Positions 3,880 to 64,000 of a stretch of 64,000 nt of DNA are shown piece by piece. The position numbers and the translations under genes were made by a program. This DNA comes from a virus. Position 1 is the first letter of the stretch, and each line of letters opens with the position of its first letter. The stretch covers positions 1 through 64,000 of IMG/VR virus record IMGVR_UViG_3300043409_001427. One strand, given 5' to 3'. The notes under the pieces are model-generated. The model was not told where the DNA came from, ran no database searches, and worked only from the letters and a program-made list of their open reading frames with translations.

Positions 3880-4244
3880 TCAAAGGATTACGAGGCGATC
3901 AAGGTATTACGGTTAGTGGCGGCGATACTGCTGTTCCTTATATTAACCAAAATACCACCAACCCCATGCAAGGCATGATGCGAGTCTGGGGAGCGGACCT
4001 GCAGACATTTGATGGCAGCAATTGGATTTGTATGAATTCCAGTTATGCCACTGTAAGTTTAGATCCAGAGTTACAAGTATTATTAGATTGGGTTAAATCA
4101 AAACAACGACAAGAAATTGAATTGTTAGAATTAGCCGTAAAAAACGAAGCAGTGCGTATTGCATTAGAAAATGTAAAAAAGGCACAAGATCAACTTACCA
4201 TAACAGCACATTTATCGAGAGAACATGAAACAGTTACCAGTTAA
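3876..4244 (+). CDS. hypothetical protein
   Basis: ATGA overlap with clamp gene; C-terminal coiled coil. Confidence 0.7.
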   Translation: MIKGLRGDQGITVSGGDTAVPYINQNTTNPMQGMMRVWGADLQTFDGSNWICMNSSYATVSLDPELQVLLDWVKSKQRQEIELLELAVKNEAVRIALENVKKAQDQLTITAHLSREHETVTS

Positions 4245-5871
4245 TTTAACACCACTACAAAAAGACTATGCTGTCTATTTGCCAGCTATTAGCTCTTTCT
4301 ATAGCACCTATGTTGCTAAACAGCGACTAGAAGAATTTGTACCTAAAGATCGTATTCCTCCGGGATTTGATCGCGGCATTGAAGGTATGAACTTTCTTAA
4401 CCCGGAACAAGGATACTTTACTTATAAGTATGCTCTTTATTCTGCAGGTCATGCACAACTAGATCTAGAAAAAAGTGTAGAACAAGAATCAATGATCCAA
4501 CAACGAGATCGTGCCAATACCATGATACTTGGCGACTCAGGTGGATACCAAATTGGTAAGGGTGTGTTGAAGTTTGATTGGTTAAACTTTGAAGGACCAG
4601 AAGCTAACAAGACTCGTAAAAAGATTTTAGAGTGGTTAGAATTGACTGCCGATTGGTCAATGATGCTCGATGTGCCAACCTGGGCCTGTGACCATATACA
4701 TAGTCCAAAGACAGGCCTTAAAACTTTTGAAGATTGCCTAGATAAGACAAAATTCAATAATGATTACTTCTTAAAGAATAAATTAGGACAGACTAAATGG
4801 CTCAATGTATTGCAAGGGTCAAATTGGGAAACAGCCGAAGCATGGTATGATGGTGTTAAGGAATTTAGTGATCCGAACGGACCTTATGCCGGCAGAGAAG
4901 CAGAAGGTTGGGCATTTGGTGGTGCCAATATGTGCAAAATGGATATTACTCTTAAGCGTCTAATGACTCTTAGAGAAGACGGTTTGCTGAAGGGCAAAAA
5001 CTGGATCCACTTCTTGGGTACAGCGCAACTTGACTGGAGTTGCTACTTAACTTTAATTCAAAGGGAAATCAGGAAACATGTCAACGAAGAAATTACCATA
5101 TCTTTTGATTGCGCCTCACCGTTTATCGCAACAGCACACGGACTTGTCTACACAAATGCCGTCCACACACCAAAACGGTGGAGCGTTATTATGGACAAAG
5201 CCCCAGACAACAAATCATTGTCAGGAAGCGATATCCCGTTCCCATTCGAATCAACGATTGGTCGCAGGCTAACAATGGCAGACATCGCCTACTATAACTT
5301 AGGTGTTCGTAAAACGGATGCCGAGTTAGGTGTAGGTCCAAGGGGTGGAAAAATTGAGTTTGATCACTTAAACCCCGAACACTACCATGTAGTTCCCAAA
5401 CTTAATAAGCTAGGTAAGATTCCAAATAGAACAAGTTGGGATAGTTTTGCCTACGCACTCATGATGGGTCATAATGTTGAGTGTCATATTGTTGCTGTAC
5501 AACGGGCACAACAGTTAATGGACATTGAAATTACTAAGACCAAAGATAAACTTTCTTGGAAGCATTGGAAAAAAGTTAAAACTCAAGATATGAGTGATGA
5601 GTATTCAGACTGGGTACCTCGCAATATTTTATATTTTAATTCCTTTGTGGCAGAGTTGTTTAATACAACATCTAAAGACGAAGCATTTAAAATGATTGAG
5701 CAGGCAAAGCCTTTCTTGAAAACATTAGAAGGTGCTCGACTACAAGGTGGTCCTGCTGATAATGTATTTGACAACTTATTCCAAGTCGAAGAAAAGATAC
5801 AGGATCAGATCGATTTTGCGAATCCCGATGATGATAATCTTCGAGCATTGAAAGACGAGTTAGAAGCATAA
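4225..5871 (+). CDS. dpdA: DpdA-like (TGT superfamily) DNA guanine transglycosylase
   Basis: TGT motifs DSGGYQ, MMLDVP, NVLQG, WAFGG, HFLG, SFDCASP, GHNV; clustered with QueD-like and QueE genes. Confidence 0.85.
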   Translation: MKQLPVNLTPLQKDYAVYLPAISSFYSTYVAKQRLEEFVPKDRIPPGFDRGIEGMNFLNPEQGYFTYKYALYSAGHAQLDLEKSVEQESMIQQRDRANTMILGDSGGYQIGKGVLKFDWLNFEGPEANKTRKKILEWLELTADWSMMLDVPTWACDHIHSPKTGLKTFEDCLDKTKFNNDYFLKNKLGQTKWLNVLQGSNWETAEAWYDGVKEFSDPNGPYAGREAEGWAFGGANMCKMDITLKRLMTLREDGLLKGKNWIHFLGTAQLDWSCYLTLIQREIRKHVNEEITISFDCASPFIATAHGLVYTNAVHTPKRWSVIMDKAPDNKSLSGSDIPFPFESTIGRRLTMADIAYYNLGVRKTDAELGVGPRGGKIEFDHLNPEHYHVVPKLNKLGKIPNRTSWDSFAYALMMGHNVECHIVAVQRAQQLMDIEITKTKDKLSWKHWKKVKTQDMSDEYSDWVPRNILYFNSFVAELFNTTSKDEAFKMIEQAKPFLKTLEGARLQGGPADNVFDNLFQVEEKIQDQIDFANPDDDNLRALKDELEA

Positions 5872-49937: not shown

Positions 49938-50372
49938 ATGACTTGGCACCACAAAGGGTCTATAGTTACAGAACTGCCTGAAGATTGTGTGGGATTTGTT
50001 TATCTTATCTCATGTAATACCTCCGGCCGGATGTATATTGGCAAAAAATTAGCAAAATTTAGTAAAACGACCTACAAGACTGTAAAGTTAAAGAACGGCA
50101 CCAAGAAGAAAAAGAAAATCAGAAGCAAAATAGACAGCGACTGGCAAGAATATTATGGCTCAAATATAGAACTTAACAAAGATGTTGAGTTACATGGCAA
50201 AGATAATTTCACACGAGAAATATTACATTACTGTAAAAGCAAAGCAGAAACATCGTACATTGAGGCCCGCGAACAATTCGACCGCAAAGTATTAGAATCA
50301 AAAGAATATTATAACGGACAGATCTCAGTCCGTGTACATGGCTCCCACATAATCAACAAAATTGGCTCATAA
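49938..50372 (+). CDS. stand-alone GIY-YIG nuclease
   Basis: GFVYLI...MYIGKK, YYGS, FTREIL, conserved E (YIEARE), YYN. Confidence 0.85.
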   Translation: MTWHHKGSIVTELPEDCVGFVYLISCNTSGRMYIGKKLAKFSKTTYKTVKLKNGTKKKKKIRSKIDSDWQEYYGSNIELNKDVELHGKDNFTREILHYCKSKAETSYIEAREQFDRKVLESKEYYNGQISVRVHGSHIINKIGS

Positions 50373-50745
50373 GCGGTACTAAGCTCGCACTAGCTAATAT
50401 CTTGTGCCCGGAAACCTGGATCTCGGATCGCAGGGAGGGAAATCTCTTGCCGCAAAGAGTACTTAATCAGCATCCTTTACAGGACCACGATCGCAAAATG
50501 CCTGCGGTTTGATTATTTGAATAGAGTGAATATAGGCCCAATGAGTGGATAAAACCACAGGTTTATGAATATGTTAGTGTATATTTGTAAGCTGCCGTCG
50601 TGTGTGAAAACACAAATAACTGAGCTCGAGGTACCGGATGACCGCCTCTGTAATGCTTTAACACTAGTGACTGTAAGAACTCAGATAATGTTCTTCTTTT
50701 TATTTTGCCCGTGCAAACGGGCAATTGTGACTGACGAATCTAGAT
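50373..50745 (+). ncRNA. putative large structured non-coding RNA (unassigned)
   Basis: More than 10 hairpins including GAAA/GCAA tetraloops, G-U-rich stems and a long-range helix 50374-50387/50621-50636; no credible ORF. Confidence 0.6.
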
Positions 50746-50826
50746 AATACTTAAATTACTTCGTAATATATCAATTAAAAAAATGCTTCGAGCGATTAGC
50801 GAAGAAGCAAACGAACGCAGTTCGGT

Positions 50827-50834
50827 TATAAATA
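50827..50834 (+). promoter_or_regulatory. T4-type late promoter
   Basis: TATAAATA 30 nt upstream of ATG 50864. Confidence 0.8.
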
Positions 50835-50863
50835 GTTCTAATAACTTCTGGAATAATTTACCC

Positions 50864-53200
50864 ATGAGCATCAAACATATTATTGATCGATTAGATGAGA
50901 TAGAACAAAATACCCCGACAATTAAGAAATATATTGTTGAGAGTGTATACAATGCTCCGGAAATGACTAAGCATTGGAGGAAACTCGATGAAGGGTTTGC
51001 CAAGGGCTATAGTCGATACTTAAATGAGGTTGCTCTAACTCCTGATCAGATACAAAATATCTTTAAACAGGCAGGTGGTACGGCAGGTGAAGCTCCAAAA
51101 GATCCGAGCAAGCTAGCAGGGCTTGTTGATAAAATTCTTCCAACAGGCCAAGCAGCCAATTTAGAAAAGACATTACCTGAACCGGATGCAGGTCCTGTCC
51201 AAGGATTTGAACAAAAAGCCGCAGCCGCAGTACAGAACATCCAAGGTGCAGACAGCGCAACTAAGCAAAGTTTGATGCAATGGATCAAACAAGGTGTTGC
51301 TAAACCAGAATCACAACAACTTATTCTAGCCGCGGTAGGCGCCGGATTAGGTACTATCCTAAGTAAAGTTGGCCCAATTATTAGTATGATACCCGGTGCA
51401 GGACCATTTGTAGCTGCCATAACTGGTGCTTTAATTGCAGGAGCGATATCAGTTGCTAGTGCTAAACTACAAGGTAAAGACTGGAAAACGGCATTTAAAG
51501 GTGCAATTAAACCAGCATTAATGGGCGGTGCTGCCGCAGTTGTTGGTAATTTAGCGGCTACTGCGATAGGTACAGGTTTAGGTGCAATGACCGGCGGTCA
51601 AGATCAAGCAGCCGCCCCACTACCTGGCGCAAGTTTAGGTGTTGGAAAAGAACTTCCAGATGGTGAAGTCATTAGTGCATTAGATTCAAGTAATCCAAAT
51701 TCAGGAGTCACAATTCAAAGACCAGATGGCTCAACATACACAGTTAGTCGAGACACTGCCCAAGCTATGACGGGTCAAACTGGTATCAGCAATCAGGCAA
51801 ATATGACAGGACCTGTTAGCATGGGCGCCGCAAGTGATCCTCAAGCAGGGGTAAGCGATAGTGGAGGATCTGGTGCAAAAACAAATACTGATAAATCCTT
51901 AATGAGATTAAAGGGATATGATCCAGATGCTCCTAATGAGGTAAAAGCATGGGACAAGATCACCGCAGGGAATAAAGACTTAAACACAATACCCAATATT
52001 GATTCCGGTTTTAGTGGGGCGCAAGCAGGCGGACCCAAACCAACTATTGGACAAAACTTTGATCCAGGCTCCGCACCAATTGGCGCAAACGGACAACCAA
52101 TGCGCCAAGTGCCTATGGATGCCCCTGCTGTTACACCTAGCACACCTAGTGATGGTTCGTATCAACAAGCCGCACCAATTGGTGCAAACGGACAACCAAT
52201 GCAACAAGTTCCTATGGATGCCCCTCCACCTAAAGGAGCCGGTATGGATCCTGAATATCTAGCGAAGATTGCTAGAGGGGAAGGCGGTCGTGCATTAATA
52301 AGTCAAGATGCCGCCAAAGCTGCCATTGCCTGGCAAGCGCAAAATGGCGGGCAGGTTATACCTCCTCCAGCACCATCAAGTAATGTAACATTACCGGGTG
52401 GACTTTCTCAATACTATAAAGATAATCCTGGCATTAGAGAAAATGCAATCGATCAACAGGCAACACTTCGTGGTTGGCTTAAAAAAGATCAACAAGGTAT
52501 TACTATAAACTCGGTTCAATTAACACCTATGTTTGTTGAAGGCATTATGGATTTCTTTAAAGGTAAAGGTAAAGAAGCCGCACCTGCTGCCGCAGGTAGT
52601 GGAGTTACTCCTGATGCGTTAAACAAAGCCTGGGCAGACGCAGGCAGTCCAACGGACAGCGATGAAGTTTCTAAAGTATTACAGAGCGCCGGAGTCCCAG
52701 CAGAAACAGTTACAAAGATTTTTACAGATTTAAAAATACCCGCTCCTGGAGCATCTCCGGAAGCACCAAAAGATCCGGCCGCAACACCAACAGCGGCAGA
52801 CGGCGAAACTCCCCCAGCACCAGCAGGAGAGAAACCGGCTGATGCTTCAGCCCCAGATGCTACAACACCGCCAGATGAGTTAGCCGATATTAAAAAGAAT
52901 GCCGGACTTCCTACAACTCCACCTCCTACAGATGCTACAGCACCTGCTTCGACAACCGGTAGTGTTGATCCGGCAACATCTGCGGCAGTAGAACCTCCTC
53001 CGACACCACAAGCAGAAAAACAATCTAAGGTAGGAGTTGGTCAAATTAATAAAGTTATTCCAACTTTGAGAGTTAGAGATTTAACCAGTGTTCAAAAGAC
53101 TGTTGATAATACACTGGCAAAAAGACAATCGACAAAGCAACCAACAGCAGAAGGTAAATATGTTGGAGTTTACAGCAACTTTTTAGGAAGAGACATATAA
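50864..53200 (+). CDS. low-complexity late protein with hydrophobic helices (putative internal head/ejection protein)
   Basis: Start moved downstream of the late promoter; L/I-x-E motifs, Gly/Ala TM-like segments, APIGANGQPMxQVPMDAP x2. Confidence 0.65.
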   Translation: MSIKHIIDRLDEIEQNTPTIKKYIVESVYNAPEMTKHWRKLDEGFAKGYSRYLNEVALTPDQIQNIFKQAGGTAGEAPKDPSKLAGLVDKILPTGQAANLEKTLPEPDAGPVQGFEQKAAAAVQNIQGADSATKQSLMQWIKQGVAKPESQQLILAAVGAGLGTILSKVGPIISMIPGAGPFVAAITGALIAGAISVASAKLQGKDWKTAFKGAIKPALMGGAAAVVGNLAATAIGTGLGAMTGGQDQAAAPLPGASLGVGKELPDGEVISALDSSNPNSGVTIQRPDGSTYTVSRDTAQAMTGQTGISNQANMTGPVSMGAASDPQAGVSDSGGSGAKTNTDKSLMRLKGYDPDAPNEVKAWDKITAGNKDLNTIPNIDSGFSGAQAGGPKPTIGQNFDPGSAPIGANGQPMRQVPMDAPAVTPSTPSDGSYQQAAPIGANGQPMQQVPMDAPPPKGAGMDPEYLAKIARGEGGRALISQDAAKAAIAWQAQNGGQVIPPPAPSSNVTLPGGLSQYYKDNPGIRENAIDQQATLRGWLKKDQQGITINSVQLTPMFVEGIMDFFKGKGKEAAPAAAGSGVTPDALNKAWADAGSPTDSDEVSKVLQSAGVPAETVTKIFTDLKIPAPGASPEAPKDPAATPTAADGETPPAPAGEKPADASAPDATTPPDELADIKKNAGLPTTPPPTDATAPASTTGSVDPATSAAVEPPPTPQAEKQSKVGVGQINKVIPTLRVRDLTSVQKTVDNTLAKRQSTKQPTAEGKYVGVYSNFLGRDI

Positions 53201-53201
53201 T

Positions 53202-53909
53202 ATGCGTATCAATGAATTATTAGCAGAACAAGAACAACTAGATGAACTAAGCCTTAAGGGGTTAGGTCAGGGCATAGGCAAAGCAGTAGGTGCAGCCGCT
53301 GGGGGAATAGTTCAAGGCGCAAAAAATGTTTGGTCAGGTGCAAAACAAGGTTACGCCGCAGGGCAGGCAGCATTAGCGCCAGGGGCTGATCCAGCCGCTG
53401 ATCCAGCCGCCGCAGGCAGTACTGCACCAGCAACGGGCAGCGGCGGCGCTGTAGCAACACCTCCAGCAGGACAAGCACCGGCAGCAACACCTCCAGCAGG
53501 ACAAGCACCGGCAGCAACACCTCCAGCAGGACAAGCACCGGCAGCAACACCTCCAGCAGGACAAGCACCGGCAGCAACACCTCCAGCAGGTGGAGAAGCT
53601 CCTGCAAGTCCAGCAGTAGATCAAGCAAGTAAAGTTGGTGTAGGACAAATTAATAAACTTATTCCAACACTACGAACCCGAGATTTAAACAGCGTAAAGA
53701 AAACTGTTGACGCTACTCTTGTTAAGAAACAAAAGCAACCGGCAGCACCAGCGGCAGCGCCAGCTAAACCAGGAGCGGTGGCACCAGCGGCGCCAACTCA
53801 AGCAGAGCTTGATGCTGATCGAGAAAGATTAATGGGACCAGATAACGGTGGCGCGAACGAAAGCAAGATCGTTAGATTTGAAAGTCGTTTCTTAGGAATG
53901 ATGATTTAA
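53202..53909 (+). CDS. Ala/Pro-rich late protein (putative internal head protein)
   Basis: MRINELLAE...LDE N-terminus; shares a 36-aa motif with the upstream gene. Confidence 0.7.
   Translation: MRINELLAEQEQLDELSLKGLGQGIGKAVGAAAGGIVQGAKNVWSGAKQGYAAGQAALAPGADPAADPAAAGSTAPATGSGGAVATPPAGQAPAATPPAGQAPAATPPAGQAPAATPPAGQAPAATPPAGGEAPASPAVDQASKVGVGQINKLIPTLRTRDLNSVKKTVDATLVKKQKQPAAPAAAPAKPGAVAPAAPTQAELDADRERLMGPDNGGANESKIVRFESRFLGMMI
53453..53590 (+). repeat. 30-bp perfect tandem repeat, about 4.6 copies (ATPPAGQAPA)
   Basis: AGCAACACCTCCAGCAGGACAAGCACCGGC x4 plus a partial copy. Confidence 0.95.
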
Positions 53910-59350: not shown

Positions 59351-59596
59351 ATGATACTAAGAGAATTCATTTATTTCGATCGCGATCACAGAGATCCTCA
59401 AGAGGACAATCGGTACAATAGTCAAAATGATACCAGCATTCTTAAGAGTAAAGACCTGCGTAAGACTCGGTTAACACTCCGTATGATCAACGATATTCGT
59501 AAAGCTGCCGAAGCCCACGATAAAGAAAAGCGTGAAGAACTTGGTCTAGTTAGAAAAATGTACGCCGCACCTCCTCCAGAAGCCGCCCCTATATAA
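59351..59596 (+). CDS. small prohead-associated protein
   Basis: MILRE...RKTRLTL..IN; TAAATA at 59340. Confidence 0.7.
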   Translation: MILREFIYFDRDHRDPQEDNRYNSQNDTSILKSKDLRKTRLTLRMINDIRKAAEAHDKEKREELGLVRKMYAAPPPEAAPI

Positions 59597-59789
59597 ATAT
59601 AGTAAACTACAAACATAAGTTTTGTTATCAAAAACTAAATATTTTTAACAAAACTTGTCAATTCCAGGATCAAATCCTCGGACTTTCTTGCCAGAACGGC
59701 TCGTTTTTGGCCTATTTCGCATACTAAAATTAACTATGCTGTAAATACCATACAGCATTGCCGCTACCATAATAGGAGAATTTATTAAC

Positions 59790-60806
59790 ATGTCTACAAA
59801 ATTTGAAGAGTTGCTTGATCTTTTGATTAACGAAGAACACGAAAAAGCCAATGAGCTTTTCCATGAGATCGTTGTTGAAAAGTCTCGCTCAATATACGAA
59901 AACCTTATCGCCGAAGAAGAGGATGAGGAAGCCGACGAGAGTCAAGAAGATGATGATGAGTCTGTAGAAGAAGCTTCTGAAGAAGAAGACGAATCCGTAG
60001 ATGAAAGTGCCGACGAAGAAGCCGACGAAAGTGTAGACCTAGAAGATAGCTACATGATGGACGCTGGAGACGAGCATGACGACGGTCTTGGTGGTGACGC
60101 TACTGACGACCTAGGTGCAGAAATTGGTGCTACAGATGGCGCTGGTGAAGAAGATCCAGAATCGTCTGAAGAACAAGCAATTTTTGATATCAAGAACGCA
60201 ATTGAAGAATTAGAAGCAGCCTTTGCTGACCTAGAAGCATCTCAAGGTGCTGAAGCTGGTACAGACTTCGGTGACGAAGAAGGCGACGATGATTCCGAAA
60301 TGGGGTCCGACGATGAAATGATGGGTCAACCAGCATTTGAAGGTCGTAAACTTCGTGAGTACTCAGAAAAAGTTGGAAACGACTGGGAAAAGAACAGCCA
60401 AAAAACTGACGGTGATGAAGCTGGTGCAGGCACCGGTGAAAAGATGAGCCGACCAGTTGCAGGTAAAAGCCCAGTAAGTTCCGGTAAAGGTAAGCCTACA
60501 ACAGGTGCTACTGCTAAGAACATTCTAGGCGACCAGAAAGTTGGTCAAGGTAAGAATACCGGCGACCGTCCTGATAGCCTAAACAAAGGTATTGCACAAG
60601 TTAGCGGTGAAAAACTAGCTAATGGCATGCAGAATGTTGATGGTAAGAAGTCAGGTGTTAAGACATTGTCTAAACAAGGTGCTGGATATCCTGGTAATAA
60701 CAAGTCCGCTGGCCCAGTAGGTTCCGGAACAGGCGACAAAGCAGGACAAACAAGCGTTGGTAATGTAAAGAGCCCAATCAACGGTGCTCCTAACCGCAAC
60801 GCCTAA
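59790..60806 (+). CDS. acidic prohead core/scaffold protein
   Basis: Very acidic with repeated ESVEE/ESVDE protease-type sites; AGGAG SD; lies between portal and protease. Confidence 0.7.
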   Translation: MSTKFEELLDLLINEEHEKANELFHEIVVEKSRSIYENLIAEEEDEEADESQEDDDESVEEASEEEDESVDESADEEADESVDLEDSYMMDAGDEHDDGLGGDATDDLGAEIGATDGAGEEDPESSEEQAIFDIKNAIEELEAAFADLEASQGAEAGTDFGDEEGDDDSEMGSDDEMMGQPAFEGRKLREYSEKVGNDWEKNSQKTDGDEAGAGTGEKMSRPVAGKSPVSSGKGKPTTGATAKNILGDQKVGQGKNTGDRPDSLNKGIAQVSGEKLANGMQNVDGKKSGVKTLSKQGAGYPGNNKSAGPVGSGTGDKAGQTSVGNVKSPINGAPNRNA

Positions 60807-63801: not shown

Positions 63802-63834
63802 AACAGGAAACCCGCGTTATGCGGGTTTTTTGTT
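63802..63834 (+). terminator. intrinsic terminator after MCP
   Basis: AAACCCGC-GTTAT-GCGGGTTT followed by a T run. Confidence 0.9.
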
Positions 63835-63857: not shown

Positions 63858-63938
63858 TAAATAATCATGTTCACCCCGTAAGGGAGTTTATGCGGTCCCC
63901 ACCGCGTAGGCAATAGAACTGTCTAACAATTTAAGGAG
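63858..63938 (+). promoter_or_regulatory. late promoter plus structured 5' UTR
   Basis: TAAATA (63858), three-way junction 63869-63919, SD AAGGAG at 63933. Confidence 0.65.
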
Positions 63939-63945
63939 AAACAAA

Positions 63946-64000
63946 ATGGGACGCCCTATTAAAAAACAATTTTTTGGAAATTTAAACCTAGGTGCTGCAA
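63946..64000 (+). CDS. N-terminal fragment of a late (probably structural) protein MGRPIKKQFFG..., truncated by window end
   Basis: Strong SD, ATG at 63946, open to the end of the window. Confidence 0.65.
   Translation, partial: MGRPIKKQFFGNLNLGAA

Follow-up and report, generated by a model that had tools for sequence, protein, structure and literature searches.

Polynucleobacter-1 appears to be the first third of a pseudoknotted RNA with twin co-varying sites in freshwater T4-like phages and genomic islands

Polynucleobacter-1 (RF01718) has been an unexplained entry of Rfam since 2010. The supplement of Weinberg et al. [quoted passage not shown] A blastn search for the motif in 50,697 phage records likewise returned none.

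The window analysed here is a stretch of 64,000 nt from an 82-kb IMG/VR virus record, which derives from an uncultured freshwater T4-like phage and is only 23% complete. Its T4-type genes include those of DNA polymerase B and of gp47/SbcD-like and gp46/SbcC-like proteins, and the order at the locus of interest is gp47/SbcD-like, gp46/SbcC-like, a small ORF, an Hc1-like protein, a 144-residue GIY-YIG protein and then a gap that, on the gene map of this otherwise compact window, is the largest gene-free one, as an earlier note made from the letters alone had stated. The same note read the gap as a large, multi-domain structured RNA on the + strand: the many U-G and G-U pairs, which fit this strand only, and the covariation found in phage relatives confirm it. 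The extent that it gave, 50373–50745, was right as to the location of the RNA and too short at the 3' side, where three further covarying hairpins and a TATAAATA box lie beyond the limit. From conservation across the gap and from covariation, the RNA spans approximately 50373–50826 (+), i.e. about 454 nt, and in phages it begins 1 nt past the stop codon of the GIY-YIG gene. The features of the locus are as follows.

49938–50372 (+): gene of a small GIY-YIG (SegE-like) nuclease, 144 aa (PF19835, 110.5 bits; phrog_447)
50373–50826 (+): whole structured non-coding RNA, its 5' end set by PK1 right after the stop codon, its 3' end probably at Hc
50373–50377 (+): 5' strand of PK1, GCGGU, partner of 50449–50453; 97.1% paired, G-to-A changes compensated
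50382–50518 (+): part corresponding to RF01718 (P1, P2, P3 and P4 with P4a and P4b); cmscan 102.1 bits
50449–50453 (+): 3' strand of PK1, GCCGC, in the loop of P3; same helix as 50373–50377
50500–50503 (+): tentative PK2, P4b loop GCCU with AGGC at 50534–50537; 64% paired on alignment A1
50545–50558 (+): hairpin P6 (GUGG/CCAC); double changes in 4/4 pairs, 91.6% paired
50561–50592 (+): long, G-U-rich hairpin P7 with conserved loop GUUAGUGU; double changes in 12/12 pairs, 96–97% paired
50576–50580 (+): 5' strand of PK3, AGUGU, in the P7 loop, partner ACACU at 50661–50665; 100% of cells paired, double changes in 4/5 pairs
50601–50614 (+): P8, optional insertion hairpin UGUGU-GAAA-ACACA, in the window and about five relatives with compensated variants; a gap in most
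50622–50658 (+): hairpin P9 + P10 with loop UACCGGAUGACCGCC, the most conserved core; column identity 0.78–0.89
50677–50689 (+): twin site 1, GAA-CUC-AGAUAAU (left arm, invariant centre CUC, 7-nt box shared with site 2)
50704–50725 (+): P14, GC-rich hairpin between the twin sites; covarying UUAGCCC/GGGCUAA, UUCGCCC/GGGCGAA, UUCUCCC/GGGAGAA
50736–50748 (+): twin site 2, GAA-UCU-AGAUAAU (same arms, invariant centre UCU, box shared with site 1)
50755–50767 (+): hairpin Ha (AUUAC-UUC-GUAAU); 4/5 pairs covary in 76 relatives
50784–50809 (+): hairpin Hb (UGCUUC ... GAAGCA) with conserved internal GAGCG-N3-4-GCGAA; covariation in 76 relatives
50810–50826 (+): hairpin Hc, followed by a U/A run; 8 pairs, 97–100% paired, with AU/GC/UA exchanges
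50827–50834 (+): TATAAATA, which has the T4-type late promoter consensus and would serve the downstream gene; (N)ATAAATA directly past Hc in 76/82 relatives
50864–53200 (+): downstream late gene, ATG at 50864 (MSIKHII...), 778 aa, no family match

In cmscan the segment 50382–50518 (+) is a full-length Polynucleobacter-1 RNA (E 6e-23, gathering score 37): the match spans positions 1–141 of the 141 of the model with no truncation, and the score exceeds the gathering score over the entire model. Scanning 50200–50900 against Rfam at E ≤ 10 yielded nothing besides this family, so that the 5' third matches a described Rfam family, an outcome that the earlier note had listed as refuting its reading, and the remainder is not in Rfam. 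About 30% of the RNA is all that the model accounts for; PK1, P6, P7, PK3, P9/P10, the twin sites, P14 and Ha to Hc lie outside it. As had been anticipated, the RNA is neither tRNA nor tmRNA (ARAGORN predicts no such gene in the window or in five of the island loci described below), and it has no match to an RNase P or group I family at E ≤ 10; a group I intron carrying the GIY-YIG gene was also discarded, given the lack of an Intron_gpI match at E ≤ 10 and flanking genes that are complete and unrelated. A different Rfam RNA is found elsewhere in the window, namely freshwater-2 (RF02980) at 63871–63948 (+) with 61.5 bits and a gathering score of 49.9; it stops at the start codon (approx. 63947) of the next ORF, and a terminator-like hairpin lies upstream of it near 63810–63830.

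The fold of the single sequence is not exceptional (z = −1.08, + strand), so that the evidence for the RNA is comparative. On alignment A1, made of 85 related phage RNAs, pairing reaches 92.8% for a model of 79 pairs, whereas shuffling the columns gives 81.1% (0/500 shuffles attain the observed value), 53 of the 79 pairs have changes on both sides, and the covariation score is 0.361, to be compared with 0.142 for shuffles and 0.05–0.09 for slid partners. Several helices that had been proposed from the letters were recovered in this way: GCAC/GTGC corresponds to P1 (double changes in 5/5 pairs), CCTGGATC/GATCgCAGG to P2, CTCTT/AAGAG to P3 (4/5), TAATCA/TGATTA to P4 (100% paired, 4/6) and the G-U-rich stem at 50561–92 to P7, all on the 85 relatives, and TTGCCC/GGGCAA to P14, which covaries on a second alignment. 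The double changes of P1, P3 and P4, together with those of P4b (4/6), show that the helices of the Rfam model are kept by compensatory change. The TGTGT-GAAA-ACACA hairpin (50601–14) exists, though as an optional insertion present in about six relatives. The long-range stems that were thought to close the structure, CGGTACT/GGTACCG (50374–80/50630–36) and AGCTCG/TGAGCT (50382–87/50621–26), were rejected for lack of covariation (69.6% paired versus 68.8% in shuffles), as were TTATTTG/CAAATAA (59% paired) and the GCGGT/ACCGC pairing invoked for a switch, which has 0 compensated changes. The 5' GCGGU pairs instead with the P3 loop (50449–53), forming PK1, the first pair of which is AU in 28, GC in 24 and UA in 12 of the relatives. 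On these comparative grounds PK1 and PK3 are strongly supported as real pseudoknots. PK2 would be a third, tentative one: the loop matches the complement of its own RNA in 23/85 cases against 15.8 ± 2.2 with the loops permuted, and AGGU variants accompany ACCU loops in 6/7. The entire gap is conserved, and the best-conserved block, 50619–50668, falls outside the Rfam model; within it, P9 and P10 are 98.8% and 99.5% paired, respectively, with double changes (second alignment).

A pattern built from P2 and the junction that follows it found the RNA in more than 120 IMG/VR viral contigs, 120 of which were fetched for comparing the neighbourhoods; L009, L011, L021 and L062 turned out to be chance matches of the pattern with no RF01718. 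A GIY-YIG ORF (51–94% identical) ends 40–75 nt before P2 in approximately 110 of the 120 contigs, with gp47 and gp46 genes upstream, so that the position directly downstream of the GIY-YIG gene, to which the earlier note drew attention, is conserved in the phage clade.

The most distinctive part of the RNA is the pair of sites that flank P14. The box AGAUAAU stands at 50683–89 and again at 50742–48, and the same 7-mer is found at both sites in 87/89 relatives despite its variation among them (8 variants, including GGAUAAU in 31, AGAUAAU in 29 and GCAUAAU in 17), with A/G switches of the box recurring between near-identical neighbours. The left arm (−6 to −4; CAA, GAA or CGA) is also identical at the two sites in 72/85 cases, versus 28.7 expected by permutation. 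In between, the centre is CUC at site 1 in 85/85 phage RNAs and UCU at site 2 in 85/85 phage RNAs and in 110/113 island RNAs. Simple gene conversion would hardly leave a fixed difference at the centre between arms that co-vary, a pattern that speaks instead for a common reader exerting selection. These extended sites of 13–14 nt with fixed CUC and UCU centres are new here.

Several readings of the box were tried and abandoned. It is not a promoter or a genome-wide motif (23 copies in the window versus 16.5 expected), and, the sites themselves apart, a search for its complement within ±3 kb, in the window and in G001 and G002, two host genomes, found none. As an internal partner, 50512–18 can form G-U-containing pairings with it in 43–66/89 relatives with no covariation, and is the 3' strand of P4; the P1 loop does not covary with the box either. 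Anticodon-loop, codon, CsrA, Hfq and anti-SD readings, judged by eye, do not fit all variants.

The same RNA is found in cells, in a different setting. RF01718 is present in three bacterial MAG contigs (labelled Nitrospira, Sterolibacterium and Comamonadaceae), namely L166, L184 and L193, which are the only real ones among 120 pattern matches in genome contigs, most of them due to chance. Once aligned, the three RNAs share about 440 nt with the elements in the same order as in the phage RNA: the 5' domain, an ACCGCC-containing core, GAACUC and box, a GC-rich hairpin, AGUGUG, and GAAUCU and box. Its distribution in cells is sporadic (1/151 genomes of one bacterial family). A pattern for the core led to 120 metagenome loci of this island type, 117 of which have the same architecture with CUC/UCU and twin 8-mers 56–72 nt apart (for example AUCGAAAG, AGCGAAAG, ACCAAAAG, GACAAAAG and GGUGAAAG); RF01718 was detected in 14 of the 15 loci tested. 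Here two small and similar hairpins, both covarying, hold one site each in their loops. R1, built as a covariance model from the 3' domain of the phage RNA, has no match in 60 island loci and misses the island 3' domain, so that for the 3' part the case for homology is made by collinearity and by the 5' domain that both forms have in common.

The island RNA stands alone, divergent from the upstream gene, and none of GIY-YIG, gp46 and gp47 genes was found in the island loci. In 46 of the 70 loci with enough sequence, the gene of a tyrosine recombinase of about 200 aa, with PF00589 as its sole domain, lies 0.3–1.2 kb downstream on the same strand; in the other 24 it is missing nearby. The island backbone continues after it with two ORFs of about 250 aa, an AAA ATPase, another integrase and a restriction-modification cargo. 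Such full-length homologues with the same twin sites, lying in genomic islands of freshwater bacteria beside a minimal tyrosine recombinase gene, are new here. No tyrosine recombinase was detected in the 82 kb of the phage record, which is 23% complete.

Some further observations were made on the islands. Several of those that bear the RNA have tRNA genes close to their ends (L272:54-126, L289:52-124 and L358:5086-5174), which fits tRNA-targeting genomic islands. The Comamonadaceae MAG G001 (L249) contains two full-length copies of the RNA (C15:183766-183901 and 192645-192782), 8.9 kb apart in the same orientation and with the same box AUCGAA, and the small recombinase gene follows only one of them. 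In the window, a 548-aa protein encoded beside the DNA polymerase gene (4225–5871, +), with no Pfam or PHROG match, is 30–34% identical (E 1e-37 to 3e-50) to orphan proteins of two RNA-bearing islands (L250:6198-7493 and L324:8899-10218); it was discarded as a partner of the RNA since the island homologues are in 2 loci only and their position varies.

With these data, the explanation that we prefer, with a confidence slightly above even, is that of an RNA gene in its own right: a full-length, pseudoknotted Polynucleobacter-1 RNA of about 450 nt, residing on mobile elements and acting in trans. It is carried by T4-like phages and by genomic islands of freshwater bacteria. In phages it most likely is the tail of an early/middle gp47-gp46-...-GIY-YIG transcript, which would end at Hc, just ahead of the late promoter of the next gene. 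The compact 5' and central domains are probably a scaffold that would expose a lineage-specific word of 13–14 nt twice, once before and once after a stable hairpin, each copy being made of a 3-nt arm, the invariant CUC or UCU and a 7–8-nt arm. Acting in trans, the RNA would engage one sequence-specific reader twice. This reader may be a nucleic acid that carries the complement and is recognized by base-pairing, a possibility to which we assign a little less than even chances, or, with a lower probability that is still substantial, a dimeric protein; the searches described returned no reader, guide target or partner. The structure, its extent, the co-variation of the twin sites, the two genomic contexts and the place of the late promoter motif are observed; where the transcript ends, the action in trans and the kind of reader belong to the interpretation.

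A special case of the preferred explanation would be that of a decoy or sponge, in which the two copies of the word titrate a host RNA-binding or RNA-cleaving factor, such as a toxin endoribonuclease or a defence nuclease, to the benefit of the phage or the island. The restriction of the RNA to mobile elements with its sporadic presence in cells, a rapid change of the word as expected in an arms race, and the location of the island sites in the loops of two similar hairpins are all consistent with it. However, no candidate factor was identified, a knotted scaffold of 450 nt goes far beyond what a decoy needs, and the strictly different CUC and UCU centres would be left unexplained. We consider this reading unlikely.

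The boundaries of the phage RNA bear on whether it acts in cis. Hc, with the U/A run that follows, is likely the 3' end of the RNA and a putative terminator, and TATAAATA comes directly after it; this motif may act as the promoter of the downstream gene. That the late promoter motif is placed 3' of the RNA is also new here, and it follows that the RNA is not the leader of the next gene: a 5' leader or riboswitch was rejected because the (N)ATAAATA motif, a presumed promoter, comes after the RNA and 30 nt ahead of the real start of the gene. This start is most likely the ATG at 50864 (778 aa), as the called one, 50783 (805 aa), lies inside conserved hairpins and 5' of the motif and is, thus, spurious. 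The product and that of the next gene (53202–53909) are both Ala/Pro/Gly-rich with no family match and have in common a C-terminal motif, KVGVGQINK.IPTLR.RDL..V.KTVD; in relatives either of the two gene types can come first after the RNA. A second TATAAATA is found at 59592–59599, at the opening of another gene-free gap of 193 nt (59597–59789) ahead of the gene at 59790. As to expression, assembled contigs of three metatranscriptome runs cover 50273–50653, and the same piece is present in a DNA run, so that they give no sign of transcription; coverage gaps, ends near 50650 and depth ratios of such Logan assembled contigs say nothing on transcription or processing, and no joint between the two sites is listed among them.

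In phages the first nucleotide of the RNA comes 1 nt past the stop codon of the preceding gene, so that the upstream mRNA may be acted on in cis: as a 3'-UTR, the RNA would stabilize or terminate the gp47-gp46-GIY-YIG transcript and insulate it from the late gene. Its end in Hc and a U/A run just before TATAAATA and its position at the early/late boundary, fixed in the phage clade, would also agree with such a function. Against it, the island homologues stand alone and diverge from the upstream gene, and in its size, its pseudoknots, its unpaired but invariant nucleotides and its pair of sites the RNA far exceeds any known terminator or stabilizer; we regard a cis-acting element as marginally less probable than a decoy.

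The neighbouring genes raise the question of whether the twin sites could align two DNA sites for an adjacent enzyme, the RNA being a guide or cofactor similar to omega-RNA or to the IS110 bridge RNA, and the enzyme being, in phages, the domain-poor GIY-YIG nuclease and, in islands, the tyrosine recombinase that consists of a catalytic domain only. It is a fact that both contexts adjoin a small DNA-cutting enzyme with no obvious DNA-binding domain, that the recombinase gene is found at short distance on the same strand in the 46 island loci mentioned above, and that short words that change fast but are kept identical are typical of guides. However, members of the GIY-YIG family are found in 401 cultured phage records, and RF01718 is absent after the GIY-YIG homologues of the three phages inspected, namely Melnitz, P-SSM2 (gp202, 32.6% identity) and phiM19, in which the space to the next gene is 148, 0 and 28 nt, respectively. 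Furthermore, GIY-YIG proteins that are 97.8% identical accompany different boxes, and the form of the RNA is unchanged where other genes, amounting to 0.7–1.8 kb, stand between it and the nuclease gene (L108 and L091). On the island side, 24 of the 70 loci lack a recombinase gene nearby; extra (third) DNA copies of the box in the flanks are at chance level (18 versus 12 expected); the palindrome upstream of the recombinase gene has a spacer that is unrelated to the box and does not follow it; and the inverted repeats present between RNA and recombinase gene are not colinear.

Thus, the nuclease-associated guide RNA that the earlier note proposed finds no support, with the nuclease in phages that lack the RNA and the RNA in islands that lack a GIY-YIG gene; as to the variable guide segment that it sought, variable words are present; a complement was found neither in the window nor in the two host genomes, and targets may lie elsewhere. 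The GIY-YIG gene is better described as a fixed neighbour in the phage clade, whose partnership with the RNA is putative, and we consider the guide reading improbable, although the setting in islands leaves some small probability to an RNA that cooperates with DNA enzymes. Its most far-reaching version, a programmable specificity subunit in which the identical words recognize by pairing one short sequence shared by two DNA partners and bring these to the neighbouring enzyme, is more improbable still; if true, it would add a third system of RNA-guided DNA rearrangement to those of omega-RNA and bridge RNA. As for the intervening genes, L108:3869-4600 (+) is a second GIY-YIG ORF, of 243 aa (IYLYV...YLGKT), placed exactly between the small GIY-YIG gene and the RNA, which looks like a true mobile homing-endonuclease gene, and in L091 (6492 to 4657, − strand) the 1.8 kb in between contain ORFs of 458 and 151 aa. 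The small GIY-YIG family phrog_447 is widely labelled 'NAD synthetase' in cultured phage genomes, in what looks like a propagated misannotation.

That the RNA is a replication-origin primer or R-loop RNA, the other reading of the earlier note, as might be suggested by the adjoining gp46/47 recombination and replication genes and by the AAA ATPase of the island modules, is very improbable, because covariation keeps an RNA fold rather than DNA repeats, no origin-like feature was found and the box is not iterated in the window (23 copies versus 16.5 expected).

The orphan motif appears to belong to a much larger object, widespread among uncultured phages of lakes and present also in genomic islands of what are probably their hosts. 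When an RNA is this large and this conserved, it has usually been found to be a ribozyme or the core of a ribonucleoprotein. With their co-varying arms and fixed, differing centres, the twin sites are a concrete and mutable handle for finding the partner, and the occurrence of the island form in relatives of culturable Polynucleobacter makes the question experimentally approachable.

The comparison with known systems shows, at each step, a partial resemblance. With respect to the seg genes of T4, which are free-standing GIY-YIG homing endonucleases, the upstream protein matches the SegE domain (PF19835), but it is only 144 aa long, with no separate DNA-binding domain, and whereas homing genes are expected to be sporadic, its gene is syntenic and tracks the divergence of gp46 across the clade. 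GOLLD and ROOL are likewise large and intricate orphan RNAs, found mainly in phages and mobile elements; the present RNA is smaller and has no match to their models at E ≤ 10, and to our knowledge twin co-varying sites have not been described for either. HEARO/omega-RNA (IscB) and reRNA (TnpB), which belong to the RNA-guided nucleases of IS200/605, similarly combine a large RNA next to a small nuclease gene, a mobile element and a fast-changing segment. However, the nucleases of omega-RNA and reRNA are of the RuvC/HNH type rather than GIY-YIG, their guide is terminal rather than internal and doubled, and a system of the omega-RNA type would be expected to keep nuclease and RNA together, whereas here the nuclease family is common in the absence of the RNA and a target complement was not found. 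The bridge RNA (seekRNA) of IS110/IS1111 elements resembles the island form, in that the RNA lies beside a recombinase gene and has two specificity elements. On the other hand, the IS110 enzyme is of the DEDD/serine type as opposed to a PF00589 tyrosine recombinase; the bridge RNA elements are donor- and target-specific instead of identical; the present RNA is about 2.5 times longer; and no recombinase was detected in the 82-kb record of the phage form (23% complete). As for Polynucleobacter-1 itself, the freshwater habitat is alike and 50382–50518 fits the whole model, but RF01718 lacks about 70% of the RNA described here.
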